Positions 22,901 through 53,500 are shown, counted from the first letter of the stretch. The stretch: 64,000 bases of DNA from Phoronis australis (GCA_002633005.1 NMRA01000797.1:33255-97254); one strand, 5' to 3'. The notes: generated by a model from the sequence alone, not told the origin. Numbers and translations: made by a program.

Positions 22901-22997
22901 TGCTTAAAGCACCACAGAAACATAGAATTAAAAACAAATTTACCAACATACGAGATTAGCACAGCATTAGAATGCCAGAAACAAATTTCTACTNCAC

Positions 22998-28000: not shown

Positions 28001-30605
28001 CAAAAATTAAGTATTTGCAGCTCAGCAGAAGTGATAAGTCTGATAATTAAAGCAATAACAGAATACAATAGGGACACAATAAGGCTCATGAAATTTGCCA
28101 TCATGTTATTGGGTTGATAATCAATCTCATGTATTGCTTCTAGCTTGTGATGTAACAACTGTCCAAATCATTTCTAAAGAGTCTGCTATCATAAATTACA
28201 CACCTTCCCATTATGACTCAGTATACATAACTTTAAACTAATTGTGACTCTTTGTGCTGACAATATGGTATCATTCTATTGTGTTTGCATTGCTTTATAA
28301 AACATTTCGAAAGCTGAGACAATAATCCATAGGTATAGTTCTGCTACCTGTTAGGAACAAGTGACATATTGTCAGACTTTGATGCTGGCTGTGGTGACTA
28401 TGGGATTATTCCCAGGTTGCCAAACACAATCTGAAGTCACCTTGGCAAGCTGCAGGTTACCAAACTGAGCTGTGATGTCCATCCAAGTAACCAGCTTTCA
28501 TTGTAGTAAGAAGTCTTACTTAAACAACACCAGCAGCAATTAGCAATGCTTGATTGAGTTTCCAATAATAAAGTGAAATGTTTGGGCCAGGAGTGAACAA
28601 GTAAAGTAATGGAAATGATCCTATCTCATATGTAAGGCAAATCATCTGAAAGTACAGCAGTTGAGAATTATTCATTTTCATTAATTAAGCCACAACAGAG
28701 CTGAATTTGGCTGAAAATATTAGATTTCATATTCAAGGCAATTCAAAATAAATTTCCTAGGAAGCCCGGAAGTAGTTTTCAAAGACAACTTTGACATAGA
28801 AGTGTTGATGATCCACCTCGTGACAAAAGAGCCATTTTGTTTCTAATAGAACTAATTTCAATTCTTGCTAAATCGTAATAATTTACTTAGGATGTCCATT
28901 CTAGAATAAACAATTAGTGGCTCGACACAATAACCACACATTAAACTCTTGATTAAATGCTTGGCTATTTCATTGCGACAAAGGTTCGGTTCAACTGAAC
29001 TCGTCTGCCAAATATTTCTGGCAAGAATTCCTCCATATTTGACACAGTTGAGTCGATGTCGGTCTAGGTTATTTTGAAAAATACAATGTGCATCTCCTTC
29101 AATCATCAACATTGAAACATACCTTCATTGCAATAATTTGGGATAGTCAATTATTGTGAAGAATGCGTGGAAAAGAAGAGATGATGATAATTTTATAACT
29201 CAGGTATGTTCCACAACAGTTGTGACCGAAGAATATTTCAACAAATTTCTCAAAAAACTTGCTGGACAAAACTTCAAGTAAAACCAGCACAGGTGGGTAT
29301 TACTTTCATTTCCGACTGGGTTAATTATGTATCTTATACCCACCTTAAAATGCTCATGTGACATACCTTAAGAGAAAGAATTCAGTTGGTTAAAAATAAG
29401 GGGCTTTCAAACTGAAAAAAAAACCCGCAAATCTAAGCTCATATATGTACAAGACAAAAGCACCACCGTTTCCTCATTACAACAGCTAATTTTGTTAACA
29501 TCAAAAATGACTGGTAAGAACCATCAAAGTGGCAAAATTCTAATAACGAAAGGCTTCGACACCTTAATAATTTTCCTGGTTCCCCCTTTAATCTCGGTCA
29601 TGACCGAAGGTTACTCTTACAGTGAATTCTACATCCACCGAGCCGTCACGATGTGAAATTCCTGTGAGGTCATTTTGTTTCAACCCTTTTGGATATACCG
29701 TACATCGTTTCATAAAACGCTTGCAAAATTAATAACAAAATGTTCTGTTTCAAGTTTTAAGAGTGAAACTAACTCATTTATTACCAGAATTGTTTTAGTT
29801 TGAGTGAAAGTGAGCAGACATCAAAAGCCTCACCTGTATGATGGAGGAATAATACATTTGAAAACTTAACATCAATTGAATAGAAATGTAAGAATTGCAT
29901 GAAATATCCCATTACCAGTGCACACAAACGTGTTGAATGCGTGATTGGAACAAAAACACATTTAATAGCCCATTACCAATGTTTCACACAGTGAATTTAG
30001 GTCAGAAGTTAAAGTTTGAAGAAAATAATAGTCAGCTCAAATTAAAACCATTAAAGCATTAAACAAACGGCAAAACATTCCAAAAGTCAACAATTGTAAA
30101 ATTCACACAGCAATACAACAAGCATGGACTACTGTGAGCATCTTTAGTTATCAGTCACGTGCGCTGGAGGCAGGATTGGGGGGACTATTACTTTCTATAT
30201 TATTCATTCACAAACGTACGCACCACCTGACGTGTGACGTTTTGCAACAAAATTTGTGTGCCATTCAGTTATTCACTTTTCACATACCCAGAGAAACTGG
30301 GATGTCTTCATTCTACCCATATTATAATAGCCTTCTAATGTCCATGCAGCAACCTTATGATTGTATACTCTTGACATCTAGGACACTAGAACAGTATTTC
30401 AAATTTCGCTAATTTTGGAAGAAATTCTACATGTAGGATACAGCTGATGGAATTCAAGAGAAACTCACTGTCAAAAATGCAGTAGGAATATGAAAACAAA
30501 ATGGTGAGAAATTCTAAACCCCATAAAACTCAGTTCCGGAAAAGGGCATGACTAATTAATTAAATTACGGGAAACTGTAGTCAGTAACCGAAAAATATGT
30601 CTGGG

Positions 30606-31074
30606 CAGGCTTTCATGCAGAGTATGTCCTGGCACTAATATGGACGCCCTGGCAAGGATGCCCAATGTATCATTTGAATGCCCACTATCAATAGGAACCT
30701 TTCAAGTTTGGACACACACATTGTAATGATTACTAGGAAGCCTAGTATGAAGACTCACAGTGGTGGCTCTTTTTTCAAAGCAGGAAAAAATATATGGCAA
30801 TGTATATACAAAGTATATACAATGTTGCTACACTTGGTTGGTTGATTGTAAAGTCTTGGTCTACACAGTTTTTTCAGCAATAATGCTCACTACAGAAGGA
30901 TGTTTTTTAAACTTAGATGTAAAAACCGTGGTCTATGCATTTTCTTGTAAAAAATCTGTGTGTTTGGGGGAGGGTTGCAGGGGATGGGGGTTACACATCG
31001 GAATCACGGACGCCCTGGAATATTGGGAACCCCATTTTGGACACCCTATTTTCGAAATCCTGGATAAAGGCCTG
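30606..31074 (+). mobile_element. hAT-type MITE copy 2
   Basis: TIR CAGGC.TT/AAAGGCCTG; perfect 8-bp TSD TGTCTGGG. Confidence 0.9.
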
Positions 31075-33411
31075 TGTCTGGGATAATCAACCAACCATAT
31101 TTTTACTAAAAATGACATGAAAAAGGTTGCTTTCTGATTTAACATTATGCTCATTTCAGCATTGATTCAAACTTTTTTAAATTTCATGGAAAAACTCATA
31201 AGTTGCACAAAACAAGAACCAAAGGGTTGTTCAGAAAAGATGACCATATCAGAATTTTCAATATTTCTTCTTGAACATCTAAATGAAACAATCATTTTTT
31301 GCAAAATTTTAGTAAAAAGACATGGTAACGTCATTGATAAATGACGGATTGATATCAAGTCAAAAATCAAATTCTATAGAGTTTCTACTTACAGAAATTA
31401 GGCTTCTCCGACAACTTAATTCTAGTTTAATTGTAGATATTTTCCTAAATGCACAAATTTGTCGAAAAATCCCATATAGCTTTACTCATAAACTGTTTTT
31501 CGTTTAGTAAAAAGGAAAGATCATTCCACGTAATGACAAACATTCAACGTAAGTTGCAAGTAAAACAAACACTTTTATCTATCAAACATTCACTTGAAAG
31601 ATTCTGACAATAATTTATCTCCACATGCCTAAAATGACTTTGCAAAAAAACAAAGCACCTAAAGAAACTAATAGCAGAATGATACTGCCTTAAAGATTTT
31701 GTAATCGTTCAAGTACCTTTACTAATACAACTGAAGAATGCAAAAGATCTATAAAATATGCAACTTAAGGGCCTTTCATACTAACGTCAATGCGTCGATG
31801 GTTTGGGGAGTTGCGGTCAGTATGAACGGTCCAGCTAACTGCGCTGTTTACATCGACGCTCCCCTCAGACCTGAGTTTAGTCAATATGAAAGGGCCTTTA
31901 AAGCATAACCAATTACTATGAGAAATCTTCTGAAGTGGGCCTCTTTGAAGAACTGAAGGGCGTTATGTAAGATTGGAAATCAAGCTTAAGTGACTAATCA
32001 AAGTCATGACCTATGGGAAAATTCAAGGCAAAATAACTCATTAAGCTAATTAGTTGTTGTGTAGACATTGGCAAAATTTTTAGCCACTTAGGCTATGCAA
32101 AGAGGGAATGGAACATACTTTGTAAAAACGAGTTTTGATAATTTAAAAAGAATTTTATTTGCTTCCCACTCACAGCCTCAACGTAACCATGTAATTGACT
32201 CCGGCAATCTGGCAATTCTTTACACTGTGAATACTTAGCAAACATAAATAATGGGTTCTAACAACATTTACTTTGAAAATTAGAAAAAAGAAGCCAGACA
32301 TGAAAACAATGACGTGCAATTTGAGCTATACTTGGATTTTTACCCAGGGACTCTAATGCTTGCTTTTCAATGCATTGTAATAATAAACACAAGTGTCCAC
32401 CTCCACAATCACCATTAAATCCCAGTTCACATTGTTTCCTATAAATTCATAGTACTTAAAAATTAGCAATTTATCATTTCTTTTTCCTATTTCATTAAAA
32501 CCAGGGCCATGGCCCCAAGAGTGTAATTGGTAACAAGTTGACTCAATAACGACTGATTCAGTAAAAGATTTTCGATGCGTAATTTCTAATCTCTAGCTAA
32601 TTGGTTACAGTCATAGTTTTTGGGAGCTGATCTGACTCTGGAGTTGACAGCATTTTTCATTCTTGTGTTCTCATGAGGAACTAGGGTCAGGCGGAAATTC
32701 ATCATTCTAGATCGAAGTTAACAGCTCCAGTTCACTTCGCAGGTAAACAGGTGGATTTAACAACGCAGCGTTGTTGTTGCAGTGCATTATGAACGGTCAA
32801 TTCCGGTTTCAACGAAGTTACTGCCCGAGGCCACTGTTATCCTCAAGAATTAAAGGACAAAGTTGTCGCTAATGGTTTCTTAGGTTTTACTAAAATAATC
32901 ACCAATCGAATTAGAAATAACTTTGATATCAAATAGCACACTTGTTCTAAAATTGTCACATCAAAAAAAAATTGTGCATGGGTCATCAACACATAACTTT
33001 ATGGGATTACTGGGATGATGACTAGGTCACCTACTGTTTACTTCAATGCCCTTAACTACAGAAGCTGGTACCAACAATTCAATTAACTTTGTAGTTTACA
33101 TTGATGCTAAGCTCATCCTAGAGTTAAGTTAGTGTGAAGGGACCTGCAGAACAAAAGGAACTGGTTTCCTTGAGGGAACACAATAGTTCAGTGGTGCAGC
33201 ATCACCAGCATGCCTCATGTAATTATTGTCCAATTATGTCCTAAACTATGTGGTTGTCCACTGCCAAGAAAAAACCTCACTATATAAAACAGTCCTCTAC
33301 ATAGCCTGCCCTAGAACACCTTAATGCACGAATGCAACTTAACCCACTTTTAAAAGGAGCGTCCACACAAACACCTATCTGATACCTAGGGTAAGACAGA
33401 AGTTGCCGCTC

Positions 33412-33525
33412 CGTGCATGAAAATGAACACCTAATGCGAATAATTGGGCCGCAAAAGAAGACCAGTGTGCATGACAATGAACACCTGATGCGAATAATTG
33501 GGCCGCAAAAGAAGACCAGTGTGTA
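33412..33525. repeat. Tandem duplication of ~54 bp
   Basis: gtgcatga.aatgaacacct.atgcgaataattgggccgcaaaagaagaccagt x2. Confidence 0.85.
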
Positions 33526-36500
33526 TGTAACCGGAGCTGATAATTACTTCCACCTTGCACCAAGTTAGCGGCCACACACGAATAAGAAGTAACGTAACAA
33601 GTTACCCTACCTCAACAAGGTGGAGTAAGCTGTCACAAGTGGGAAATGTTGCATTAGTTTAAATAGCGTCCATACAGCCATTAAACCTAGCGACAACTCG
33701 TGGCAGGAGTAACTTGTTCTAGAGTAAGTCTGTGTGTGGATGGCACTTGGGAAATGTTGTACTTTATGCAACTAAATCACTTGAGAAAATTAAGTATTCT
33801 TATGGATTTCAAAGGTTATGGCGCTGTTACTCAAACCGAATTCCCATTAGGCATACAGCAGCTCTGAATGTTCCCTCAGTCCTTTCATTGACCGAGCCGC
33901 CATAATATTGCAATGACGACATGTACATATGATAGAAAGATGCCGGGAGAACAAAAACAGAGCATAACTTTGATCCTGAGAGAGTTATGTGTCTGCATGA
34001 ATATGACTTTTTAGAATGAATGCTATGAGTTGCCTAATGCAACTGTGTTCACAAACACAGCAAGTTGTGAAAAGAGAAAAAGTGGAAAACATCAAGTCTT
34101 CAAAATCTGGCGGGTTGTAGCTTAATTATTTGGTGAAAACTTGTTTTTGGGATTGTCTAAGCCATGTTCATCATTTCAACATTCACTCCCAATGTCATTA
34201 CCCAATTCGTTGTGCATATTCGACTACTTAATTTAATTATCACTACAATATTTAAATTGTGTAATTAATTTGATGTGCCTCGAGTCAAATTAGGAGACTG
34301 TCAGCAGAAGTGAGTACCGTGTTCATTGTTATACATGCCACGCCAAGGGAAAATTCGAGTGACAGCAGTGTAACCTTTGAACTTTGATAAGTATACAAAT
34401 TTCCACATTGCGAAGGTGGGTTGGGAAGTTGTTTATTTCCTACCATAAACAGGTAAGATGTTGATTTTAAAGCAAACTAAAAATGAAGATAAAATATTCA
34501 TCCACACACGCCAGTCAGGTGTTGCAAAAACTTACAAATTTAGAACTGGTTCCTCCATGCCCTTAACAGTGCTGCAACATTAACTGGCAGTCTGACTGTA
34601 CAGGGGGAATTGAAACTTTCACTTCTGTTACACATTCAACTGGGTGTTGGTACAAAATTGCCCCAGAGTGTTCATAGCACTATTGTCTCATACCTGTATA
34701 GCATAGAGCCCGTAACTCATGAAACATCAACTGCTAGTGCAAACTACTCGCAACACAACCGATATTGTTGAAATTTGAAAAGCATGTGTGCAGATATTTG
34801 ATTTATTTCCTACACAGGTCAGTGCTTAGCGGAAAGAATGCTCCCGGCTGAGAATTGAAAAAATTTGTTTTTGTAAAGATCCTTTGCAGCAGAAACCAAT
34901 TAATCCAAATTTTTTCTTGTGCTCTGGGGAGACATGGGGCTTTCACTGAATTTTGTTTGTTTTGGGGTGTTGATAGTGGTACACACTTTTCAAAGCCTAT
35001 GCTGCCTTATTGTCAGATTTCCATAATGTATCTTCAATTAAAACTTGCGTTGAGCTGCTCCTTTTTAATCTAGAAAAAGGATTCAACATTAAAAAATATG
35101 CAGTAAAAAACACCAAATTCAATAGTCAGTAGCAAGGGTGGTTACAGAATTTTGGTCTGGCTATCAAGTAAAAATCATGTATTACTCCCACTTTGATTGC
35201 TCTATAGCTCATAGCACCAAAGTTAACATTGACAGTTAACTTTGCAGTAAACACTCAGGTGGATTTAACAGCAGAGCATCGATGCTGCCATGCGGTATGA
35301 ACCGTCAACTTCGGTCCCATCGAAGTTATCCCCATCGACCAGTGTTACCATCATCAACTAAAGGGCAGTGTCGTCGCAAGTTGTTGCTTATATTTGAACA
35401 ATCACCAATCGAATTAGAAATAAGTTTTTTGTCAATTAGCACACGTGTATGTTCTCAAATTGTCGCATTAAAAAATCTTAGCGTGCATGTGATGCAACAG
35501 CGCTATCTTGCGATAACTTCGATGACAACATCATCACCTACTGTTTACATATAGTGCAGTTGTCCAACCTTACCCACTAGAGGTCACTGCAAATTCAAAG
35601 TAATCTTAATTTTACACAATTTCATAATCAAAGGGGTTACTTTTGATGTTCAGAAGTGAAGGAGACAACGCCAAAAATTGACGACGTAAGTTTTTTTTAC
35701 TTCATCTTGGCACCCAAATATCAATTGTCCTTTATGATTCATTTTTAACTTGAACAATAGTCTAATATGACTGAATATTCGCCTTTCTTAGAATGTTTAT
35801 AATGTGTTATATAGTATGATTTTGTGGGCTGCCATTTTTAAATCAATCAATCAATCAATGAAAGAGTTTGTTACTTAAGAGCGTTTCATTAGGTTTTCTT
35901 AGCGGAACATATCTAACATGTGGTGACAAAAACATTACTGAATACAGCGTTTACCGCTGAGCCTGCAGCTAAAATAAAGGCAACTTAGTTGCGCTGTGCA
36001 GTGCTATTTTGGATAATCATAGATAGGTAATTTTTGTGTTACTTTAAATACGAGAAATCCGATGTATTCTTTTGTGCAACTTCTAAGTTCAGGGCTTGGA
36101 ATGACCCATGACAAAAAAGAGGAAATTTTTACGGTCCTAAATACACATTTCAATCTAAACCATACCTCAACAGATCGAAAGTAAACATTATTATCACAAG
36201 ACGCCCTGTAACTGTGTTGTGTTGGCAAAACGCACTCATCGTAAGCAGTACCTGACATCTATTTCAGCAACAACAATGAAGGCAATTAGATGCAACAAAA
36301 GATATTTTATAAATTTAAATTAAAATAATAAAGATAATGATGCAAAATTTGCAGTGTGAGTGGCAGCAGCTTATTCTTGATTTGCTGCAGGGAGACCTAA
36401 AAAATTATTTTCAATTCTTATAATTACGATACAAAATTATAAAAAAAAATTGAAAATCGATCCATGGATTATCTAGAAAGCCTGAAATACATTACACATT

Positions 36501-38211
36501 TAATTCCAACAAAAGAATTTAATTGCAATGCAAATGGAAAAAAGTCAAGACGAAAACCTGTGGCTCATACCCCCAACTGTTAGCATGGAAAAATGAAAGT
36601 CAAAATTTTAACTATATAGAATGCATCAATCACAATCCTAAGTTGGCCAAACTTTTCAGTTTCAAACAGTAGTTACAGGAGTTAATTGTTCATAAGACAC
36701 GCTGGTGTAGAAGAAACTATGTGACAAAAAATAACTACAAGGACACAGAAAATAGGCGGGCAGAATTTGTAAACAATGGCTTAGACCAATCAGATCATTC
36801 AGAATCTGTCGCGTGATCACTTCCCTCGAACTGCAAAACCCGAGTCACAAAATAGAACACCAAAAACGTGAAAATAAATTGAATTACATAAAAGGCAATT
36901 TAGAACACATTTGCAGTAACGAAAATAGCACTCTGTATCCCGTTTCGGCGGCACGTAAAAAGTCGCACTCAGACAGTCAGGCCTAGCACTAGCCTCCAAG
37001 GGCAACGGGCGTGCATGTGGGATCAAACAAAAGAATTTCATACATCACTCACATCCTATGATTCCAATCCAACGAATAGCCCGTTATGGTTGAATTTCCT
37101 TTCAGGAAGCTTTGTTATTTCTAGTGTTCCATCATTTTCAGTCAGTTATTCGACTCCACTTAGTCCAAGACGGCTCGACCACGCACTCCGTAATTGTTCA
37201 GCTCTCGAAGTTTACAGAGCACAAACCTTGGTTTGTGAAGACATTGACCATTTCTTTTATCCACTTTTTCAACGACATATTCGGTCTACTCCACGCTCCA
37301 CACATTTTCACAGCAGAAATGCACTATTTGTCACTGCGATTTTATACCAAATGCAGACGCCATTGATGAACCACGCTATGCCAGGTACAGGCACTTGAAT
37401 TTATCTGTTCCTTGATTACCACTGACGTCACTCTCTACTAAGAGAACATGTTTCTTATATATGGTTACGAGTCATCGGGAAATTCGAGCGCCTGTGATCC
37501 GCAATTACAATTTTCAGTCGGCAACGCTGCGGTGAGAAACCAATTTGCCGCAATAACTTTATGGCAAATTTAATTTTTTCCGCAAAAAGATAACGAAAAT
37601 ACGCGGAGGGAATAAAAGAAAAAACCGGAAATCCGCATTTCCGTAGAAAATTCCAAGCCTTGTAAGTTGACCCCAACAGTATATTTAACTGGATGCACCA
37701 GAAATAAAATCTGAAACATTAAACCAAACCCATCAGAGCGTCCAATCAAAACAAGCCATGGAGAACAATGAGTGATAGCCTAATTTTATAATCAAATGTT
37801 GTTTTCGAATCCTATAGTCCGATGTAAAAATGCTCTTGTTGACCATATAGCCGCTGTGCAATTCGCGAGTGTCTCTGTGTGCGGGACACGAAATCGCAGA
37901 GGAGTATAACTACAAACCTCTTAGACGAACAACAGGTTGCACTGCTTTAGGTCACATTGAAAAGAACATGTCAAGAAAATGTGTCGGCGGATATTTTCGA
38001 TGATTTTATGACCAATCAAATCATTTTTAGACTCTGTTTGTACAAAACTCATCATCCAAGATTTGTGTAAGATGGTCAATGCCAAAAGCACCTACAATCT
38101 TCAGTCATGAAAATTCAATTTCTGTTTGAATGTCACTGACTCATATTTTAGAGACAGTCCCAAACTGGAGAATGTTAACTGTTAAAAGAATGTCAACGGA
38201 ATGTTAATGAT

Positions 38212-38990
38212 AAAAGCATGAAATAATTGAGACATCCAGTTGAGAAAACAGATAAAGTTTGAATCTAATACTAGAACACAAACTTACAAAAATTAACGAC
38301 GTTGCGTCACGTTCTTCAGCTTGGCTTGTGACGTAATCGTTATTCTGGCCAATTGGGTGGCATTCTGACCAGATGGCACGGCATTGATGTCAGAACTTCT
38401 CCCACACGTGTGACAAATCGAATCTTAAACCGCCTCTTTTATTTAAAAAGGGACTCTCAATGCACTCATGGAGAACTTCTGAACCAGTCTTCCTCACAGT
38501 CTAGGATAGTGACATCACCAGAATTGAAATCATGTCCAGTGGTGCACAGGGGGCTAAAAATAGCCGAATCATAAGTGTCCCCGTAACTAGAACGACGATG
38601 TTGTGTCATACGTATTTTTATGGACTGACAGTTACATACAAATTAGGTGAAACGAAACAGTCCATAAAAATGCGTGTCACAACATTGCTGGGGACACTTG
38701 ATGATGTCACTATCCTAGACTTTGAGGAAGACTGGTTCAGAAGGGGTGTAAAGGAAGCTCTCCATGAGCGCATTGAGAGTCCCTCTTTAAATAAAAGAGG
38801 CGGTTTAAGATACGATTTGTGACACATATGGGATAGAGTTCTGACATCAATGCAGTGCCGTCGGGTCAAAACACCACCAATTGGCCAGAATAACGATAAC
38901 GTCACAAGCCAAGCTGAAGTCCCTGAGATGCAGACGCAACATCGCTAATTTTTGTAAGTTGTTATTCCAATATTAGACTCAAACTTTATC
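38212..38990. mobile_element. Fold-back Penelope-like element
   Basis: ~280-bp inverted arms; LGETKQ...DDVTILDFEEDWFRRGVKEALHERIESPSLNKRGG; 14-bp TSD ggaatgttaatgat/ggaatgataatgat. Confidence 0.85.
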
Positions 38991-39100
38991 GGAATGATAA
39001 TGATTTCGATGTGCTTAGACAGCCAACCTTCAATTGTCAAAGAGAACTCAAAATACAAGAAATTGATATGTCTTTTGTATTTTCAGGACGGATACTATCG

Positions 39101-39481
39101 ATGGGGATTCAAGGCGTAATTTTCTGCCTAGCTGTGGCTTCTGTTACATCCCTGCCGCTGCAACAATCAATCGAAGAACTCTCAGATTATATACACGCCA
39201 CTGAAGGCCAAGACAGTGAACGTTTACAGTACAGCATCGATTCAGACATTCTCCGAGAGTTGATCGAATTCAGGACAAGAGCTGAAAAACTGAACCAACT
39301 AAACGCAGCTTTATATCGGGCACGTGAACTTTTAAAAGAAATCAACAAGTATACTGAGCGTGACAGGCCATCAAATTTTCTTATAAAATACGAACGCAGG
39401 TCGTTACCAAACGGTTTTAAGACTTTGTCAAGTAACGGTGGCACACGCTCGTACGGTGCAAAAGTGCATCGATACGGGTGA
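39101..39481 (+). CDS. Nested secreted neuropeptide-precursor-like protein (126 aa; CRH/DH44-like helix plus C-terminal RY-amide peptide)
   Basis: Acceptor tcttttgtattttcAG at 39086; signal peptide MGIQGVIFCLAVASVTS^LP; acidic spacer; SIDSDILRELIEFRTRAEKLNQL...RELLKEI; ERR dibasic site; ends HRYG*; AATAAA at 39657. Confidence 0.8.
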   Translation: MGIQGVIFCLAVASVTSLPLQQSIEELSDYIHATEGQDSERLQYSIDSDILRELIEFRTRAEKLNQLNAALYRARELLKEINKYTERDRPSNFLIKYERRSLPNGFKTLSSNGGTRSYGAKVHRYG

Positions 39482-42029
39482 CGATCAGTTTTTTGTGTGA
39501 GTGCAAGAAAAATCAATGGAAACCGGCCGGCTGACAGGAAAAGCTGGCAGAGATCAAGCAACTGAACATTCACTAGTCCCTTCATGCTTTGGATAGCTTC
39601 ATGTGTTATTTGGAAGGCAAATATTTTACGAAATGTCATAAAGGGTTTAAACACAAAATAAAAGCCAAACATTTTCATTGAGAAATGTTAATTCCATATT
39701 GATTTTTGTGGCATGGCACATTGCAAAATGCTATTTATACATTGAGCAATGACACCTACAGCACTATATTCATTTATTTAATATCGTTCCTTATTTACAC
39801 AACCGACAATTTATCCCAGAACATGCCAGGCATTGATATCTGGGCGTCCAAATTGTTTAAAAAAGGCATTTAATTACAAAATCTTGAAATGTACCTCGTC
39901 ACACATCCAGGAAATTTTTCTGATTACAATTACAAAATCCATAATTATTCAAACAATAGAAAAAGAATTACACAGTATAAGATTGCCAATATTAACAACA
40001 ATACTATTAGTACAGTTGATAATTGAAAGAACAAGGAATACAATGATTATGAAATCTCATATAATTAATGACTTTCAGATCCAAAAAAGATGTAATTATG
40101 ATTCAGACAGAGTGGAGGTCACTAACACATTTTTGGGGTCTGAAAAGCAACATCTTGATTGTGCTAGTAAGTAACAATTGTTTTATAAGATTATATTTGC
40201 TAAGTATGTAACTCCTGGAAGGAAGATATGTTTCGGCTTTTGAATGTGTATCAGTCATTTGTGTGGACAGTCAGCTACAATTTTTATCCAAAATGCAATG
40301 GACAAACCAACAACCAATCATATTTTGGGAAAGATATCATGTTTTGCTCTCTTACAATAGTCATTCTTATTACAGAACAATTGACATACGTTATTTGGGT
40401 CAAATATCAAATGTGATAAGGTCAGTCACGTGACAGAACAATGACTAATTCCCATGTTGAGACTACATTGCAGATCAGATTATGGTTTTGACTCTTCGAA
40501 TTTGAAATATCCTTCATGTTATACAGGGCATTGAATTAAGCTAAATATCGACTGAAAGTAGACAGGTTGTAGAGTTTGACTTAGTACCGAACCACAATAG
40601 ATTGGGTTACATGACCATGTATTTTTAGTAAATTTAAAAAGGTAAAGTACTCTGATAGCTAAACCAATGGTATCAATAACACTTTAATTTGTTTACTAAC
40701 AATCTTCAAAAGGGAATCCAAAAAACTCCAAAACTTTTCTAAATTTTTATTTCATTTTTGTTTTAATTTTGATTTTTTCATGAAAATCAAAAAAAAATCA
40801 GCAGTGATAATGGGAAAGTCAATTCAGCAATAATTCTGGACATGTAAACCACCAGATAAGTGCACTGTGTTATTCATTCAATACAATTATGCACAAACTG
40901 GAGAAATGGGTCTAGAACCTGCCAATACTATCTGTCACAATGGGTCACTTAAGTGAACTCAAGAGTCTGCTTGAGTGTTACCTAATGACAGGACATGCTG
41001 TGCACACAGTAAAACTTACCTCAAATCAGATAAGCAATGTTCATTAACCATAAAACACAATCGTGATACATTGGTGGGAAAACAATGCTCTCAATAAGAA
41101 GTCCACATTTCATTTGATACAAATGATGAAATCTCAAAAATGCTATAATTACAGTTTTTTAAAATTATCGTTTTGTTTTTATCTTATACAACTTCTGAGT
41201 TTTTTATGAAAACCACCAGTTCTATTGATTTTAATTTTGGTTGTTACACGATATCTACCATAAGAAAAAACTTAAGGTGTACTCTAACATTTAGTTCCGG
41301 ATTCTAAGAATGAATGAGGGTAAACAATACAGCATCATACCTGAGTAAACTAATCACTAAGTACTCTTGGGAATTTCCAGTCACATCTAGTTAAACACAA
41401 GAAATATTGCCCTATAAGGCAAAACAACAATTAATGTGAGCATTTCAGTCAAATCCGGTTATTAACTAAAAAAAAACAACTGGAAAAGTTGTTCGCCCTG
41501 TTTAAAGCAAAATGTCAATTACTGTGAGCATTGTCAAGAGATTGCACATCAACCTCGAAACAATCTCATAAAAACTTATATGATCATTTCTAAAAAAGAA
41601 TACATTTATAAACGAGTCAAACACAGTGACTATTTATAAGAAATTAAAGCTACTATGAACTTGAATTTTGTCGAAACAATTTTTGAAGTTCCTGGCATGT
41701 AACTCTACTCTTGAGAGATTACTGTAGGTTATTAAACTGGAATCAAAATTGCGTACAGAAAAGATTCCTGTACTTTGGAAGACTTGACATTTCCCTAATA
41801 CTCAAAATCAAGCTCAATGGCTTGGTTTGACCAAAAACCAATCAAAGTCGAAACCTGCTTTATAACAGTATGCGGACTAAAAACACCAATGAAACATTTA
41901 TTTCTTTTTGACTACAGTCGCCTTGTGTAGGTCACCAAGTAAAAAGTCTTGCAAGAGTTTGTTAGGGTCTGACAGAATTCAGTTGAAATCTTTCAGCACA
42001 AACCCAGAAATTGCTTTCGCATTATATAC

Positions 42030-42196
42030 AGGCTCTCTGATTCACTCCCTGGCATCCATTCATTACTTGAAGACCAAGACCAAAGGAGGAGACACCTTTG
42101 TGCAATGCTCAATTGTCTGCCAGTAAAGCCAGGATTTGAGCCCAGGTGTCTCACATGGGAGTCCCGAGCTCAAGCCACTGAACCACACTGTCTCCA
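42030..42196 (-). mobile_element. tRNA-derived SINE head / tRNA pseudogene
   Basis: Minus strand GGAGACAGTG-TGGTTCAGTGG (A box)...GGCTCAAATCC (B-box-like); acceptor and anticodon stems poorly paired. Confidence 0.55.
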
Positions 42197-42770
42197 CAAT
42201 GGAAGTCTTACTGGACTTTCTTTTGAAAACTACAGTTAGGCTCCTATCAGAGGAAGACCAATGAACCAGATGACCACAACAAAGTTCATTGCCATGGGTC
42301 TTGTCCATAAAAACTAGGTTCAATGCCCCAGAAAAATAAACAAGTCAAATGAATTTCATGATTAGCGCAATGGATTCTCTGGAATTATCCAATTCCCAGT
42401 ACCATCAGTTAGACTTCAGATACAGATGGAGCAGGTTATATTTCTTCAACAATTCCCATTGGAGTTTTACATCAGGACGACAGCAAAATAACAAGATCAA
42501 TGCAGTAGCATAACATGGCATTGCATGTTTGAAGATATGTTCTTCAAAGAGATTAGCATTCATTAAATCCAAATTTGAATAAAAAATTTAATTAAAGAGA
42601 TTCACTTCCGCGGCTAAACACAGTATTTAATTAACTTCAACCGTGAACGTTCAAAGACGAAGAAGACAAAATTACCCGGCAAATTGCTATTCAAATGATG
42701 AAAAATAACAGTATTAAATACATTGCTTCGCAGCTGGGTTTGACAATGGCATGAGGACTGCAGTCTGTAG

Positions 42771-42809
42771 CACACCCTTGAGAAAGAGCGCGTCGCTCGA
42801 TACGTGTGG
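42771..42809 (+). ncRNA. Penelope-type minimal hammerhead ribozyme variant (probably degenerate)
   Basis: CACACCC-TTGAGAAA-GAGCG(cgt)CGCTC-GATA-CGTGTGG: stem I, UGANAA core, stem II, GAAA>GATA. Confidence 0.5.
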
Positions 42810-43928
42810 ATATTTTAGTATATTTTAGTACGGATGCTAGTCATTTAGTTTTACTAGTTTTACTATTTTATATGTTTATTCGTCGGTAACTGCAACATCT
42901 ATTTGATATCAATATAAATCTTTTAATATTGAAAACAAGCAAGAGAAGTTCTTACTGCTTTATGGTAAAATATCACTACTTTTGGACAAAAATAGTTGTC
43001 AAAATGCCGATGTCGGAGCTGGGATGAGATTTTTGTGAATAACAAGTTAATACATCATCCCTGCGTAACAACAAATAAACTTTCACGTATCACTGTCTAG
43101 TCTTTTCTTGTGATATTGTGGGTTATAACCTGAACCTACTATACAGAACATGCAGGCATCCTGGAACGTCTTGTTATTAGTGTTGGTCAAATTACAAAAT
43201 ACTCCCAGGAATATGAAGCGTAATCTTTTTTTAAATTCACGATGTTCACGCATTTTAGGACCCACTTCATCACTGTCTTGTAAGTTGAAGCCAGTCGCTG
43301 TGCAGCAGTGCACTCATCCACACGCCATGTTGAAATCAGATGAGTTTCTATTATCGTGCAACCACAATACACAAGCTCCACCCATAATGTCACATGATCA
43401 GAATCAGTTGTGAACAAACTCCACGCGCGTGTATTTGACTAAGCGTTGTGTTTTGCTGAATAATCTCTGTGAAAATACCATTTAGTTTTAAATATTCCAA
43501 CGAAGGCAGGCGGTGACATTAAAATGTTCCATTGATGCACGATGGCTATCAAAACTGAACGTCTATGATTTTCAAGAAAAAAAAATCAACATTGCATGTA
43601 CTAAACAGGAAATTACAAGTATAATTCAGAAAATTGCAAGAGTCTTTGAGATTTCAGCGAGTAAAATCTATAGTTTTGTAGAAATTTGGCAAAAAACACG
43701 GACTTGCCGATAAGATCCAACATGACCTTAAGCAATGAACCAATTTTTTGGGGTTCAACAAGTGTTAATGATACAGTGTAAGGTTGACACTCCTTCAAGT
43801 GGGTGCAGGTGGTCTCCTGCAGAACACCACCAGTGTTTCTGTTCATAATATTAATGATAATAAATTTTGTTTATGGAGGATAAGATACAATAGATTTAAA
43901 AAAACATGCTTCAGCCAAAGGCTAGCAT

Positions 43929-45377
43929 AGACCCAATTCACGTGGCAGACATTAAAATCCAAAGCGAGGCTCACTGCGATAAACAAAGCCGAAGTTGACA
44001 TTGCGTGAGTTAAATGGCCGGTTTTTTGAGGCCAACCTGGATATTAAATCTTAAAAATGTGTCAATACTTAACCACAGAGACGTAAAGAAATACATTAGA
44101 GAACAAGTCAATGCACCAAAGAATTGTCTGGCAAAAGGGTATAAGCTTTTTTCGGAAAACTAGGTTCAAAACATGAAAAGTAAATATGACCAAATTGCGG
44201 CGATCGACGTGTTACGACTAGGTATTATGCTGAATGCAGGGTTACGTTTCTTCTAGACTTGTAAATTGTTGATAAAAATGCTAATTTCTACACGAACCAG
44301 TTCGTCTGCTCTAATTGTTGACGAGTTCATGAAATATTCGACAGCATTTTGCTGTCATGTGCATCTGGTTTAATTTGTTAATCAAGAATATTAACATCAA
44401 GCATCAGATAGCCTAGCTAGGTGAGGTAGGGACTACCGGAACTAACAAACGATTTGTCATTGATCTGAAAGAATAATTGATGTTATTAAACATATTTCTA
44501 TTAAAATAAAAACCTGGCTCGTAATTGAAAAAAAAATTCTTTGACCATCAATTCTGCTTTCTTGGCTTTAATAATTCTTACGTCTATTGCATGTGTTATG
44601 ATTCAAATATCAATCTATACCAAGTTGAATTTTAAAATTAAAACACGTACCTAATTCGTTCGTCTAAAGCATAACCTCGTTTTAGAGCTCAATTTCAGTT
44701 AACTGGACAGAGCAAGCATAGTTATCATGTTTCTTCAGGGGCATCGTTCGTTCATCACGGTGAGGGGAAAGATGCCTGTGCCTTCAAGAGGGGGATTTTT
44801 TTGCCGAGTGACGGGAAAAATCTAGCTCCCGATCACCATTAATAAGACCCCCGCCCTGTTGCAAGCTCTCATAAGCTATGTCTCAAATAGCATTTTGTGC
44901 TCTTTCCGTCAAATTGTCACCTGTGTGATTCACTCCACACGATTTGAACTTCGAAGAGAAATTTCCAATCACTTTTTTAGGCCTCGTGGGGGAATTTCGC
45001 ATGATTTTTAAATATTTTAAGAGGGGAATAGAGCCGATATTCGGCCCCAAAATCGAGGGATTGAGGGCCCTGTCCTTTTGGAAAGAAAAATGTATCATGA
45101 AAACACACTGAGCCTGGCTGGCAGAAAATACTCCAGTCGTCATTTATTCGGCAACGAGAAGTTATTAAATATGATCTAACTTTTCAAAAACATTTATAAA
45201 CTTTACACGGACATATTTTCTTTCGTCGCTTCCACGTCTCAGCGTCCTTAGTCGGAGATTGTAAAGCAGACAGTTGAATGTCCGCATTTTTTCTATAGCC
45301 GTTCGAGCAACGCAGAATACAGCTATCGTAGCGAGCCTCGTTTTGGAACTCGCCTCCAGTCGGCGTGAATAGGGTCT
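43929..45377. mobile_element. ISL2EU/Harbinger-related non-autonomous DNA transposon
   Basis: AT flanks; TIRs AGACCCAATTCACG / CGTGAATAGGGTCT; convergent ORF relics (KGYKLFSEN.V at left, THAP-like SC...CSN...PTKD at right). Confidence 0.55.
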
Positions 45378-47441
45378 ATACAGCACGGTCCTGTTTACCC
45401 GTAAATACTGACACTTTATCAGCATTTTTTTCAGTCACATCGGTTTATCTATCCACTGGGCCCTAATATTGGGAGGGGGCAACGTAGTTGATACTTGAGC
45501 ATTTCAACAAAGTATACCGATTGGAAACAGGCTAACTACAGGGCCTGCCAAAGTTACAGTTTGAACCAGACATTAGTATTAATTTTATTTCTCTTAAAAT
45601 AATCTATTCAATGGTCGACATGAGGACAACTGAAAATTTCTAGCTCAATTTTGCAATTTAATGTTAAAAATGTACAACACGAGCACTTTTTACTGACAGG
45701 GAACTGCAAACTTCTTGCAGTAATGAAATCAACCAGATCTCAGTTATTCACAAATGAGTGTCCACTGTTTTGGCCTTGCATTACAAAATTTCGGGTTAAA
45801 AGAAGTTACAGTTGTTCACAATTTACATCAAGCGTTGCATGGTCTCTCCACGACTTCTGTGAAATAACACAAGCAAAAATGCAATAAGCCACCACTCTAC
45901 GCTGTATTTACTAGAGTTCATGAAATTTCAGGAAAAACCCAGGAGAATTTGTCAATTGAACAGGACGGAATTTTCGAGGGTGACATCAGTGCTACCCTTC
46001 TTTTAACTTCTACAACTAAAAGTAAGATGTTAAAATAAAATCGTTTGATTTCCCCTTTTACTACTACCAATCTTATTTGTCTGAATGTTTATTTCCCTTA
46101 GTATGTTGTGTTGTGTTACACTGTATATTATTTTGGTGAGCGTCACTATAATATAATCAATCAATCAAAAAGCAGACCCATTGCACACAACACTAAAGAG
46201 AACCCTCCTATTGCTCATCAGGGGCCGATTTAACAAATGTCACATGCACTGTTGTAGTCAAGACAGTTGTAGGATATTACAATGCTGACATTTTTATACA
46301 TTGAAACTGACACAAACATGACTATAGTTGATATCGATTTCACACTGAACACCCACATTCACAAATCACTTTATCGCACAACTTGTCAGTAAAAAACCCA
46401 TGAGACACGTGACTAACACACGGCCTTCAATAAAACAGGGCCCAAGTCTTTTACAGTCGAATTTTCCAATTTGGTCACTAGTAGTTTCATTCTGGAATTA
46501 AATGACGAGGACCATACAGTTCTGTGAAGTTTTGACTAAGGTTTTCCAGTCTCTCATAGCGAATAAAGTAAAAGCACAAACTGCAGCTGTGATAGTTATT
46601 CAGGAACTAAAACAGTAAAAATCTCACCAATTTTAGAAAAAAAAATTCTTCCTTGACAAAGTCTTCCGAAATTGTCACGGTTCTTGTCCACACTTTCTCA
46701 CAAAATGACCGAGTATTTATTTAGAGCAATATATTTTTATCAAAAAATACAAAGATGAAATTTCACTTGCATGAACAAAAAAGGAAATAAATATATGCTA
46801 TATAAATTAAATGACATGATCACACAGATTGTCCCATTAGTTTCATACATCAAGTTTTTTGCAAGACGAACAAAATTAAGATCTTGTAAAAGCATGTGAT
46901 TCAAAAGAGAGTGTTTCACGGCAATGCTCCAAAGACTGTCTGGCAAAACGGCACCCACTGAAGTGATTGGTCAGCGAAGACAGTGTGTTGAATCGTAGCA
47001 TTGAATTCTTTATTTCTGTTCCGTTAATGACGATTTTTCCCCTCAAGAGTAAGCTATTATGTTATGGCCAACAACTTAGCTCAGGGCTGAATTAGATATC
47101 AGTGATGAAATCATTTTCGAAGATCAAACTCGCACTTAAGTACCCCTGAGTTAAGTGTGTAGGAATATCTTATTTTAATTACCTTATGTTCAAACAGGAT
47201 GCAAATGGGGTCACTAGAAATAGATGTTCTAAGAAAGAAAATGCGAGAATTTCAGCATCCTTCGCAAGTGTTGATGTCTTGCTGGAGGTTACACACTGTC
47301 AGTTGGGTTTGGATGAGCTAATTTCACAGGCAACAACTGTTCTCCATGACCACATTGAACAACTGTTCTCCGAACTTATTAGCTGAATCGCAAAACTGGT
47401 TACAACACAAGGGCTATAACAATCTAAGTTCACGGACTTAC

Positions 47442-47525
47442 AGCTTTGACTTTCGACCTATAACCTCCGCCCTTCTGATGCCGTTCCCAATCTTCAAGCT
47501 TCTGCTGACGCTTTTCTTCTTCTTT
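47442..47525 (-). CDS. SELENOS: Selenoprotein S exon 4, coiled coil (KEEEKRQQKLEDWERHQKGGGYRSKVKA)
   Basis: tttatAG acceptor, GTAAGT donor, 84 nt phase 0-0; matches SelS EEEKRRQKIEMW..Q.G..Y; not in the ORF track. Confidence 0.95.
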
Positions 47526-50500
47526 CTATAAATTTCAAAGGTAATGATAACAACAAAAGTGATCACAAGAAAGAAAAAGCATAACACTTGTCAGAAACAT
47601 ACTGTTCGAGCAGTTCAGGTCCTTCCCCATCCTGTTTGAACACGAAATCACGAAGTTTAAAAAAAAACAGTGCAGGTGGTCTGATGTCATTTGCAGTGCA
47701 TCAGACGTGCGCAGGCCTCATGGTTGGGCCCATGAAGCTTACTAATTACATCAATTCTTCACTATTTCACAAGAAAACATAGTAAAACTGGTATTTCAAA
47801 ACGCTGGCAGCTGTAAGTTCTTAAAATAAACCAGAGAGACTATGACAGATCTCATTCTCTAACTAACTATGACAAACTTTTTGACAGAATTTTTCGCAGT
47901 TTAATACCATTTTTGTTACGGTAAAATTAGACTTTGTTAAAGTTTGTCAGAGCCTAATGTGAATTGTGTGTAGCCCGATAGTTGTTAATGTACTTGCACA
48001 GTAGCTCTCATAAATTCCACAAAGCATGTTCAGCAGTACCAGTCGAGATATTGTTCAGATTCAGAATCTAGCCAAAAGGAAACATAATTTAGCTGAGGTT
48101 TTGCACGTGAAAACTGTCTTGAATTTCAACATACCGTAGTATAGTTTATTTTCAAAACGTGCCTTCTTAAATAAAATGGAATCTCTGAAATTTTGTTTTA
48201 TGATATCCTGCACAGGTACAGTAATATTTTTTTACTCAAAATTGCTCTTTATGTTCTTTGAAGACCCACCACGCTACCGTATAATGGAGTAGATGGATTG
48301 CCTACTCTATGTATCCTCAATGCATGAGATATTTGATTAGCACTGTCCTTATTCATTAGCAACATATTCCCGATGATAGTTGATTTTACTTTGGATATAG
48401 TACCTCAGCCTGCTGATTTATTGTTATTTGTATGGTCAGTTGTGCTTGAATTTTGCAGTAGCACTTGTTGAAAAAGTGCAGTCAAAAATACCCACGACAC
48501 AAAAATTCTACTAAAGGAATATATGTTTTCTTACACAGTTAGGTAGGAAAATACACGGCAATACCAGAACTTCCCATCAAATCACAATTAAAACACGAGA
48601 CTGAGAAATGCACAACAGTTAAATAAGAAATTATTGGACTTGCGTACCTCACCTCATGATCCATAAAGCTATGACATTTTTGAGGCCAATTTTCAAAGAA
48701 GTAAGTGGCCAAGAGATGTTTTTTATTTTGCAGGCAACTTCATTATTACATTGGCAAGAATTTTTTAAGAAAGCCAAATAAATTTTGACAGGTTGCAATC
48801 ATTAAAAGTGTTCTTAAATTGTTATTTGTTGGTGGACTACAAGACTAGCTGAGTGCGATGCAATACATTCAAAAATCATGGCATCGTATGTTAAGGCAGG
48901 TGTTCCCCAGGTAGAGTTTGAAGATTTCAGGTGATAAAACACGATTAATGGTCAATGAAATTTTTTGGATTGAAATGTATACCCCAACAGCTCCTGTACA
49001 TTATCCAAATCTCACATCTGACATTACAAACTCAAATCCTGAATCAAAATCATTTTGAATTAGAACTGAATGATGGCCAGCTTAAAAGATAATGCATCAA
49101 CCGCAATTTGCGACCAATGTGCGATCAACCAAAATTTATTTAAAAACGCACATAAAAAATTATAAAAAATCGCCATTCATTTAGGATTTGGAACAGTTTA
49201 TCTTTCTCTCGCCTGCCAATGTTATTAAACTGTAGTTATCTCCCATTAAATTGGGTGCAGAGTAGAAAAGTACCTATCAGCATGTTTAGCAATGTCACTG
49301 GGTCAACCCCTAAAAGGGGAGCATGGAAATGAAAGAATTAATAGAAAGAATTAAAATTCAACATCAAATTATTGCACTGATTTAAGGCCATGGTCATGTA
49401 ACCGTTTTTAGTAAAGTTTAGAAAAAAGAAACTAAGGTACATGCCAGAAAATCAATGGCATCAATAACACCATTAAACTATATTTGATATAAAATGTACA
49501 ACAATTAGGTGAGATTTCCAAAATGCTGGTATAGTTTTCAAAAATATTTGTTGTTTTATGCAACTTAAGTGTTGTATATAAAAAATTCACAAGTCCTATT
49601 TTTCCATAGTCCCTCAAGCAAAAGGCAAACATTTTAAACGCAATTCCTAACGGAATTTTAGAGACTAGTGTATAGAGCACACTCATATCTGAAATTTTGA
49701 TATCAATCAAATCAGCAGTTTTGAGATATGATGTTCCAAGGTTGGTCAAATGTGGACATTTTTCTAGGGTCCTGCATTTTACTTCCAGCAAAAAACAAGT
49801 TCTTTTTCAAGGGCAACGAAGAAACATTAATATGTACCCACATTCAATTTGGTGTATAGCAGATGATATGCTGTCTGGGATACTAATTACTTTGACAAGC
49901 TGAAAGTGTTTCCCGAAAACTGAAATTTGCACATAAAGCCAGCAAAAACTGCCACTACCAAATTTTCAATGTACATTTGAATAGTGATAAAATGATGACC
50001 ATACATTAAAAATAGCAATGAAAGATACAAAATACCATAAGACTATGACCACTTCAAGCACTAAAAATTAGATCATCTTGTAAATGAAAATAAGACATTA
50101 TTATTACAGACGGATCTTAATACATTTACTATGAAATCTAACTTTTGTCTCTGAGTCCTTGACAAAAATCGTGTAAAATGGTTCTTGCAATACCCGAAAG
50201 GGATCAAACGGCGCCCAAATTAATTGGTCTTTTTTCCACTTTTCCGAGTGAACCAAATACTCAAACTTGATGATGAACGACCACATCAAATTCATCAAAT
50301 ACTCGAACGCTATTCATGGGAAAGAAAAAAACCTTCTGATGATAGGTTACTAAGAAACAAATCCCTTGGAGAGATATTTTTCAGTGTTAATCACAATGTC
50401 TTTGAACCTCTTTAAGAAGCAGCATCCGGAAACAGAACAGTAAAAGGCAATTCTCTGTCTGCATTCAATCTCAGTGAATAAACACAATGAACAATTTGTT

Positions 50501-53500
50501 ATATACCAAATATAAACACTTGCTAAATGGATTACTCATAATCTTAAATCATGAATGGAAATTCCACTGTTTCTTTAAACTGATCAAAGATGATAACTGA
50601 ACAGTTTGCATTTGGTATTTTGCATCAGTTAAAATTTCCTACAAATTGCGATTGTGTTTGTTGTACAGTCCTATACCAACAAGGAAAAGAATTTCTAATG
50701 TAGAATGACAGTCAACGAGTATGAATGATTTTGCTAATTTAATCAATCCATGCTGTTGCAGGGCGATTACTATTTTGAATGTAAAATAAATGCCGCAGCT
50801 GAAAAGCACCCAGCTGGCTGTTGACAATGAGGCTTCATTTTATATGGGTGATCAGTCAAACTCAATTAAGAACAGTCAACTCATAATGAGGCTGTGAGAC
50901 TAACTGATACAAAACTGCCAGTGTTAATTTAATCTGTGAAGACGCCAAGACGCAAGAAAAAATGCCAATCAAGTGCAAAGAAAGTTAGTCTATGGCCTGT
51001 CTTGCCAACATTGATTCAGATAGCCATGCGGGCATCATCGATTGTCCATAAGTTTGCAGCACTAAACTTCAAAGCAAAATTAACATTTGTCATACTACCT
51101 GGCATGCTGTTTTAGCCTGCAATCAACAGATGGCGCAACTAAACAATATGTTAACATTATAACTAACTGCCACTGAGTAGGTATTCCAGAGGCAGGTTTT
51201 CATCGGTCTGGTGCCAATCTTTCTTTCGTTAGTTGGCAGGCTCAGTCTTTTGTCCGATGTCAGGAGGCAAACATCAATTATCTACCATTTTGAATGAATA
51301 CATCCATTCACTCAAAACTGTTGTCAACAAAAAAACATTGCAGCATTTTGGCCAATATCTATTGCCTTCTTATGCAAAAGAAAGATCCTATAAAGGACTA
51401 ACTTTTCATGACACAATAGGAGCTTGGATCAACTTTCATGATATCAAAAGCACACAACAACACAGGTTTTCCAAGTTGATGTAGAGAAGAATTGTCCAAC
51501 TACAAGATACTACTGACTGTAAAAGAGTATCCAAGTTGCACTTCTTCGAAAACTTTGGCAGAAAAGAATTGTTGCTCTTGAAAAAAAAAACCTATCATAA
51601 AAGCATGTTTCGTTAAAATAGGTGAAGTGTGACTTGTAAAGCATGAGGTCTCTTTTAAAATGTTTTAATTTAAAAGGAAATAACAACTTAGTTGTGTCAA
51701 CTTATTGGGAATATTCAAATGCGGCACCAGATGGAGACACGTAACAGGTGAGCCAATCTTTCAAGAACTTCACACTGTTCATTGTCCCATATGTGGACTC
51801 GGTGTGTCATCAATAGCAGTACAGGGTGGTGACACTGATTGAAATACTGGTGAACAATGACTGACCAACAAAAGATTATTACCGTTCAATCATTTTAGGG
51901 TCCTTACTCACCAAAGAGGAGAAGTGCTTGCTGAGAGGGGAAAATCTCTCCACCCAAGTGGCCACCACACACTGCTTAGAACAGACCACGTAGGGAGGAC
52001 CGGGCATATGTTTTGTTTTAATTTGACTATCCTAAATCATAGTAGGTAATGTCACACTGCAGACCTAAGGCTCCCACAAATGACTTTTTTACTCAATGCC
52101 ACTTGTATGTCATACCCCGTGCACTTGAGGTAATCCAATACACATTCTGTTTTGCATATGAAGGCAGTGAATAATGGAAAAGCATGACTTTGAAATGAGG
52201 ATTTAAGCAGTAATATACGGTAACCTTAGGAACCAAGAATCTATGCCAGTTAACGGTGATTCTTACCTTGACGGGAATTTCTTAGTCATAGGAGGGGAAT
52301 TTTTGGGGGTGATTAGCACGCAATTATTAAATATTTTTAAGCGGAACAAGGCCAATATTCTGATCCAACATGTTGTAAACAATTTCTTTCTATGAGATAA
52401 GGACTACATCTGGAAGGTCATGAAAAACATTCGGGTGTGAGATAGTCAGCCTAGTAACAGCTTGTATCCACACCCGGTTCCCATTTGTCAGCTGATCATC
52501 GAAGGAGTGACTATATATTCACTGGGACATGAAGTGCTGGGAAAAGCTGGATTTGCCAAACAGATTTTTACATGCAAGTGAAACATTGAATAATAAAGGT
52601 TAAAAGCCCACACCCCTTCATGAGACTCATATGAGAACACCAAGCAAAACTGATCATTGCATAAGTGCAGGAAAGCCTTAATCAAAACCTGCCAATAGAT
52701 GGCGCCAGACTACTAGTACCTGGAATCCACAGAACTACATGTAGAACATGAGCAACGTTAAGGGTTAATTGGCGGTCACCATGCATAGCAGATACAACAA
52801 ATAATCCTTATTTGAAGCATTTCTAGGACTGAGCTTTACTAGTTCACTAAGCTCTTAAGGCTGCAAAGCAAATCGTCCAAAAATTGGAACAAAACCTTTC
52901 ATTTAAACCTTTTCACTGCCATGATTGCCATTCAGCAATTCACTGCCAAACATGCCAACAGTTAATCGTCAACTGAGTGGGAGATAACATAGTTTAATCA
53001 AGTACCAACAGGTGACAGGAACATAGTTATACAAAATCCCAAACGGAAAAGTTAGGTTTTTAAAATTTTCGTCTTTCTTGTAAAAAATTTGGATGGCCAC
53101 TTATCGTTTGAATTGCGACTGACGCAATAGTCTCTAAACTGTCCAAAATCAAAGGTTAAATTTACTCGAACAATTCGGACTCGCTATCTGAGTTTGAAAT
53201 GCCAGACATGGGAGAGATGTGTACTAGGTCCAGGGTCAGGTATGAATTCCCATCAACAGCTTTCGTTGATCACTCTCAGTTGTCTTAGCACAGACCTACT
53301 CTACAAGGTAATGTGCATCTCAATCTGAAAGTTTCATAACAATCAACCATAAAATAATAGACACGTTTTCAGTGATTGCTCCTTATGTCATATGTGTCCC
53401 AAAAATTCATTTGACACTGGGGAAAGCAGGCAGGGGTGAATTTGAAAAAAATTCTCAGATGAATTTCACAAACATGGACCAAGAAGTTAAATGTCATAAA

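Follow-up and report, generated by a model that had tools for sequence, protein, structure and literature searches.

Organization of the Locus

The window (the whole stretch of 64,000 nucleotides of Phoronis australis DNA that was analysed) carries on its minus strand the gene of selenoprotein S, SELENOS, and on its plus strand a gene for a short protein with a signal-like start (Table 1). The latter lies wholly within a SELENOS intron of about 29 kb; the first-pass annotation had described an antisense-nested gene. The existence of this gene, its splicing, its strand, its nested position and its reading frame are established.

Table 1. Features of the nested gene, of its predicted product and of the host gene (window coordinates).
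Feature	Position	Strand	Basis and remarks
SELENOS host gene	749..60828	-	PF06936 matches and open frame across six exons
SELENOS coding exons	60828-60768 (candidate first), 56169-56032, 54039-53933, 47525-47442, 18460-18379, 837-749	-	Sec TGA at codon 185
SELENOS intron holding the whole nested gene	18461..47441 (28,981 nt)	-	GT..AG; exon assembly
Nested gene, exon 1	24925..25002 (5' end approximate)	+	Loose read ends of X1, X3 and X4; in-frame ATG 24987
Nested gene, intron	25003..39086 (14,084 nt)	+	GT..AG; phase 1 for a start at the exon-1 ATG
Nested gene, exon 2	39087..39664 (3' end about)	+	X1 contig 39084-39664 and 70 reads of X2-X4; bulk of CDS and 3' UTR
Signal peptide hydrophobic core and predicted cleavage after Ser17	39101..39151	+	Kyte-Doolittle; cleavage judged by eye
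Predicted continuous helix, residues 48-87, including CRH/DH44-like D49-I81	39242..39361	+	AlphaFold2 single-sequence model
Arg-Arg RR99-100, sole dibasic site of the precursor	39395..39400	+	Sequence
Predicted 25-residue RY-amide peptide, Gly amide donor and stop	39401..39481	+	Sequence; non-helical and low-confidence in the model
AATAAA polyadenylation signal	39657..39662	+	Sequence; X1 contig ends at 39664

The host exons were first recognised as Selenoprotein_S in translations of the minus strand. Four of the five exons scanned against Pfam matched the Selenoprotein_S profile PF06936 in collinear order (E-values from 1.4e-07 to 1.2e-04; profile segments 31-70, 74-108, 111-136 and 168-192 in the order of the exons), and exon 18460-18379 gave no match to this profile in the scan. 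The candidate first exon was picked by frame and phase, the Pfam scan covering the other five. Joined, the six exons form 187 codons in which the only stops are the TGA of codon 185 (Sec) and the TAA of codon 187. The product is identified as selenoprotein S by the PF06936 matches, the collinear exons and the penultimate Sec. A hairpin in the SELENOS 3' UTR, opening with ATGA and closing with TGAT (about 418-345, minus strand; about -22.5 kcal/mol), is a SECIS candidate whose loop does not have the usual AA spacing and which gave no match to SECIS in Rfam.

The same SELENOS intron contains on the minus strand an ATG-opened stretch (23140-22990) that is signal-peptide-like and Ser/Thr/Pro-rich, with an AG acceptor-like sequence upstream and a GT donor-like sequence beside N 22994. 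This stretch and the first exon of the nested gene face each other head to head, about 1.8 kb apart; it may represent an exon from a second nested gene, or have arisen by chance. Degraded repeat copies, several of them with inverted ends, are found at 38212-38990, 6954-7408 and 13005-13828, one of which stops some 100 bases short of the exon-2 acceptor; we presume that they encode Penelope-like GIY-YIG fragments, Pfam giving no match. Two more repeat families are represented at 19628-20099, 30624-31074 and 59185-59673 and at 8389-9394 and 56416-58011 (copies 72-88% identical). A 95-codon open stretch on the minus strand (63599-63886) resembles the C-terminus of a transposon-related protein and has no Pfam match. 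Searches with Rfam and ARAGORN found no RNA genes. The CpG observed/expected ratio is 0.40-0.61 at 16001-34000 and 46001-54000, within the SELENOS gene body, and 0.8-1.07 at 10001-16000, 36001-40000 and 44001-46000, a pattern that would fit methylation of the gene body with exon 2 and nearby repeats spared.

Transcription, Splicing and Translation Start of the Nested Gene

A plus-strand transcript with two exons is found in RNA from two studies (runs X1 to X4; reads and contig placed on positions 39030-39720). This evidence consists of placed raw reads, no run being on record as RNA in the run listing; X1 is RNA by guess only, yet its contig is spliced. Runs X2, X3 and X4 yielded 10, 18 and 42 reads, each from 11-13 million records, and the first mate lies on the minus strand for all 70. 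The X1 contig (contig 7) spans 39084-39664 with 20 differing letters. In the intron bins at 39030-39077 no run has any depth, and neither the placed reads nor the contig have a joint inside exon 2, where the CDS is unbroken.

The acceptor (TTTTCAG) has its last base at 39086. The loose 5' end common to X1, X3 (five reads) and X4 (13 reads) has a single match in the window, at 24970-24996 with no mismatches, and adjoins a GTAAGT donor at 25003; it is this match beside a donor that defines the two exons and the intron of 14,084 nt. The 5' end of exon 1 is inferred from 75 loose letters of the X1 contig. The first-pass annotation had made the gene depend on finding a spliced plus-strand transcript, which is now at hand, with the long intron removed and reads on one strand only. 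The acceptor, the ATG, the segment of residues 42-81 (39224-39343), the Arg-Arg pair, the Gly-stop end and the polyadenylation signal that it had read from the sequence all lie where it placed them.

Residue numbers are counted here from ATG 39101, which opens an ORF of 126 codons with an RYG-TGA end at 39481; ten have to be added for the longer form that begins in exon 1. The spliced frame is open from the exon-1 ATG 24987, which yields 136 amino acids, the ten additional residues including an Arg before the hydrophobic core. There is a purine at -3 of ATG 24987 and none at that of ATG 39101. On these sequence features, translation probably starts at the exon-1 ATG and gives a protein of 136 rather than 126 amino acids. 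The signal peptide of 17 residues described previously is thus present as a signal-like start, with the amendment that its length is probably 27 residues, the exon-1 ATG being in frame.

Two other frames were discarded. The intronic ATG 39068 was rejected as a start because it is located upstream of the acceptor in use, and the long minus-strand ORF 39187-39678 was taken as a shadow frame because Pfam gave no above-threshold match for it and its strand carries no reads. A promoter-like set noted by eye precedes exon 1 on the plus strand (24758-24937): CCAAT at 24758 and 24784, a TATA-like TACATAAG near 24858, the CRE half-site TGCGTCA at 24931 and, at 24919 and 24937, ATGs that open short upstream frames.

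The Probable Precursor and Its Sequence Variation

Judged by its sequence, the product is likely a secreted neuropeptide precursor. The best Kyte-Doolittle 9-mer (2.8) covers residues 5-13, the sole hydrophobic stretch at the start. The AlphaFold2 single-sequence model predicts two helices, residues 20-33 and residues 48-87, followed by a low-confidence tail (mean pLDDT 64.8; block pLDDT 80-93 across residues 48-77). R-x-R occurs at residues 58, 73 and 87. The precursor has a single Cys, inside the signal peptide, and no Trp. ORFs that combine a signal-like start, a dibasic site and a terminal Gly were encountered twice in 60 Markov-resampled windows and once in the real window.

Fifteen of the 20 differences between the X1 contig and the window are listed, and the counts that follow refer to these. 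At least ten are in the CDS, four silent and six replacements, with no indel or stop in the CDS among the differences listed. This 4:6 ratio is not different from neutral (P 0.18) and therefore does not show constraint on the peptide. Three silent and two replacement changes are located in the helix: A74T, at the Ala that occupies the conserved CRH/DH44 Asn position, and R75H at the next residue. The spacer has S91T, while the N-terminal half of the 25-residue peptide has G105R, T108I and N112K and no silent change. None of the listed differences falls in the last 14 residues, an outcome close to chance expectation. Runs X2-X4 contribute one further replacement, A11V, and one further silent change. 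A distant population or a sister species may be the source of X1.

Searches for Relatives

The peptide had not been recognised in the first-pass annotation, and no described precursor matched it in the Pfam, PDB, protein, atlas and literature searches that were run; the gene matches no described precursor family in them. The Pfam CRF profile (PF00473), which that annotation had proposed as a check, gave no match for the whole protein, for a 42-aa segment or for a 66-aa segment, the HMMER filters hiding weak matches; nor did Pigment_DH or RFamide_26RFa (PF11109). The PDB sequence search returned chance matches only, with no CRH or urocortin chain at E<=10. A word-index protein search gave 12 candidates, none of them at E<=10, and HMMER against 1.84 billion representatives gave two matches, both long repetitive proteins that align to residues 7-47 only and were dismissed as chance. 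The exact precursor sequence is absent from the protein collection and Foldseek with the AlphaFold2 model found nothing. These blank protein searches say little on novelty because, in a control, two SELENOS exons searched in the same collection also gave no relatives.

In the atlas, all listed neighbours of the whole protein are peptide-hormone precursors (0.88-0.90), including DH31, NPFF, QRFP, CCK and NMU; they agree on no single family and count as weak evidence by the tool's own calibration. Residues 36-84 alone gave nothing above 0.82 and no CRH cluster was listed. Six exact motifs found no match in the searchable literature. Motifs of the precursor are likewise absent from the available text supplements of PMC9793003, PMC5627052, PMC8557429 and PMC6586643.

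Comparison of the Helix with CRH and DH44

The segment D49-I81 counts 33 residues from the Asp to its end, as in four insect DH44 peptides, and matches them without gaps at both ends. It was compared with 11 peptides: human CRH, human urocortin, the four insect DH44, four ophiuroid CRH and Saccoglossus CRH (the last by eye). A 22-column motif in the DH44 register scored 13, two of the 13 matches resting on letters borrowed from non-insect peptides. One in 20,000 full shuffles scored as high, as did none of 20,000 in each of the hydrophobic-pattern, helix-only and heptad shuffles and 276 of 20,000 in shuffles that preserved the aliphatic, basic and acidic positions together. The score is the top one among the open six-frame 35-mers of the window, the next being 11. 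A strict DH44 motif matched at 11 of 23 columns, equalled in 30 (full shuffles) and 16 of 20,000 shuffles, and a vertebrate-register motif at 9 of 17 columns (94, full shuffles, and 107 of 20,000). The motifs were hand-made, with columns chosen after the match had been seen, and there are many candidate families; the likeness to CRH/DH44 is therefore only suggestive.

Three family hallmarks that concern processing or receptor binding are absent from the segment. The eighth-last residue is Asn in all 11 CRH/DH44 peptides and Ala here (Thr in X1). Each of the 11 is followed by Gly and a basic residue, whereas Ile81 is followed by N-K-Y, unaltered by any read or contig difference among those listed; the earlier statement that the CRH-like segment has no G-K/R site of its own is correct. 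The amide and the Asn both matter for CRH receptor binding. A dibasic site stands in front of 10 of the 11 peptides and is missing here, and the helix also misses the central E-x-A-R-R block of CRH/DH44. The product resembles the CRH/DH44/ELH group at large in its long predicted helix with an S-I...D-[IV]-L-R opening and a basic-x-L-L-x-E-I closing, a likeness that is only suggestive, and in a precursor encoded almost wholly by exon 2, but its CRH-like segment is not the last peptide of the precursor. The C-terminal position and the Gly-Lys signal are general in vertebrate CRH1/2 (PMC9353778). Chordate CRH genes have two exons with the whole precursor on exon 2 (PMC7406891); the nested gene also has two exons, its first carrying an in-frame ATG, and matches this layout nearly but not exactly.

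By sequence criteria the helix does not qualify as a member of the CRH family, because it has no CRF or PDB match, no dibasic site, no Asn and no Gly-Lys signal. The line-up of residues 42-81 with CRH drawn in the first-pass annotation holds in part: it rises above the shuffle level in the motif tests, and is not borne out by the Pfam CRF, PDB and atlas searches or by the hallmarks. Helices like its ILRELIE, of the form L-x-[RE]-[DE]-L-[IM]-[DE], are present in pro-regions of nemertean NKY and DH31 precursors. The PDF precursors of echinoderms had at one time been wrongly classed with CRH (PMC4772807 and PMC6586643), a warning against family assignment on helix likeness.

Comparison of the Predicted RY-Amide Peptide with Known Families

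The precursor carries a single C-terminal peptide with a K-x-x-R-Y-G end, as do NKY precursors. It further shares with NKY-1/NKY-2, as presented in the PMC8557429 supplement, the succession of signal peptide, pro-helix, dibasic site and one Gly/Ser-rich C-terminal peptide, at a similar length. In contrast to these, it has neither the Trp core nor the leading Lys, and its peptide counts 25 residues compared with up to 43 in NKY. Trp is needed in the consensus cores of both NKY-1 and NKY-2 (PMC6425005).

An RY-amide end is also found in NPY/NPF and PrRP, and 25 residues are within the PrRP range of 20-31 given in PMC7314547, which also places a phase-1 intron in the peptide region of PrRP genes. 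Echinoderm NPY/PrRP-like peptides directly follow the signal peptide (PMC5627052). An NPY/PrRP identity is unlikely because here no intron is found within or near the peptide-coding region and the peptide is C-terminal, apart from the signal peptide. The residues listed as conserved in echinoderm PrRP are all absent. In luqin/RYamide precursors the peptide is followed by a C-terminal domain that contains two Cys (PMC4772807). That layout does not fit a precursor that ends at its peptide and whose only Cys is in the signal peptide. QRFP/26RFa precursors are, we assume, of similar length, with one coding exon and a C-terminal peptide of about 26 residues showing ungapped likeness at about eight positions; the aromatic F-x-F core that we take to characterise them is absent from the peptide described here. 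A QRFP cluster is found in the atlas at 0.88, but there is no PF11109 or PDB match. QRFP-type receptors are present in lophotrochozoans.

Interpretation

The first-pass annotation had left the choice between a chimeric CRH-type precursor and an RY-amide precursor whose helical pro-region mimics CRH. The second fits better, and we give somewhat better than even chances to an RY-amide neuropeptide precursor with a CRH-like pro-region, the RY-amide being the likely ligand. The helix itself likely belongs to the pro-region and does not leave the precursor as a hormone of CRH type. Translation would start at the exon-1 ATG 24987 and the signal peptide would be removed after Ser17. A prohormone convertase would cut at RR99-100 and PAM would convert the final Gly to an amide, yielding the 25-residue peptide, possibly trimmed further at Arg116. 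The receptor of this peptide would be a rhodopsin-type one for RF/RY-amides (sNPF/PrRP/NPY/luqin/QRFP group). As to the helix, either decay of a former CRH/DH44 domain or convergence may account for it, amphipathic pro-helices of this kind being found in NKY and DH31 precursors. This reading is favoured by the sole dibasic site followed by a terminal G-stop peptide, by the atlas neighbours, all hormone precursors (weak evidence), by the same layout in the NKY precursors of the PMC8557429 supplement, and by X1, in which, among the differences listed, replacements hit the Ala and the next residue and the last 14 residues are unchanged. Against it stand the ungapped DH44-register match of the helix (13/22 and strict 11/23), a CDS confined almost entirely to exon 2, like that of CRH genes, and the distribution of the listed X1 differences, all three in the N-terminal half of the 25-residue peptide being replacements, as against two replacements and three silent changes in the helix.

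The chimeric CRH/DH44-type precursor is, in our view, unlikely. Monobasic cuts at Arg41 and at Arg87/Arg89 would still release its CRH-derived helix, which, extended and non-amidated, would be the ligand for a secretin-type receptor, and the RY-amide would be a second peptide. The ungapped register, with its D-x-L-R start and R-x-L-L-K-E-I-x-K end, agrees with it, as do the D-I-L-R found also in two of the four ophiuroid CRHs, the continuous predicted helix of 40 residues, the two exons with every mature region on exon 2 and the three silent helix changes among the listed X1 differences. It is opposed by the lack of a Pfam CRF match, of a CRH/urocortin PDB chain at E<=10 and of a CRH atlas cluster, and by the missing Asn, Gly amide donor, N-terminal dibasic site and E-x-A-R-R block. 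Moreover, P-values near 0.001-0.005 are weak when columns were chosen post hoc and dozens of families are comparable, and the class-keeping shuffle reached the observed score repeatedly. A divergent lophotrochozoan NKY paralogue that lost the N-terminal Trp motif, with the 25-residue peptide or a 36-residue one cut after Arg89 as ligand, appears improbable. Similar length and layout, a K-V-x-R-Y-G end as in a phoronid NKY, several mollusc NKY precursors that likewise end at RYG and an L-P...L-S-S-x-G stretch resembling NKY-1 speak for such a paralogue, but both NKY cores need the Trp that this precursor lacks and the peptide does not start with Lys.

Two further explanations seem to us very improbable. 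One is a small secreted protein without neuropeptide processing, in which the RR site and the terminal Gly are incidental. The protein-collection searches, which returned no homologue, and a variation indistinguishable from neutral would agree with it; the co-occurrence of signal-like start, single dibasic site and RY-G-stop and the hormone precursors among the atlas neighbours would not. The other, to which we give the smallest chance, is a PDF-type two-peptide precursor of an ambulacrarian, with a first helical peptide non-amidated and a second amidated. Echinoderm PDF precursors (ArPDFP, AjPDFP1a) hold two peptides, are two-part proteins of about 130 aa with helical peptides once taken for CRH, and in AjPDFP1a (133 aa) an amide donor is stated for the second peptide only (PMC6586643). 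The first ophiuroid PDF ends in an x-L-K-E-x-x-K stretch similar to the one found here. Nevertheless, the second peptide of the nested gene, predicted non-helical and with an RY-amide end, is unlike PDF2, no dibasic sites surround the helix and none precedes it, and Pfam Pigment_DH gave no match.

In many invertebrate phyla, a number of bilaterian neuropeptide receptors still lack a known ligand (PMC5818035), and a transcribed, unassigned RY-amide precursor provides a defined 25-residue candidate for receptor matching. CRH-type precursors have been described without an RY-amide partner peptide (PMC4772807). Should the helix be a relic of CRH/DH44 or a ligand released alongside the RY-amide, the gene would illustrate how peptides for different receptor classes are gained and lost by precursors. 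More speculatively, and with a chance that we put well below even, a CRH/DH44-type gene would have lost its amidation signal and gained an RY-amide, so that one precursor addresses secretin- and rhodopsin-type receptors, or an orphan receptor of invertebrates, for example the QRFP-type, would have its missing ligand in the RY-amide.
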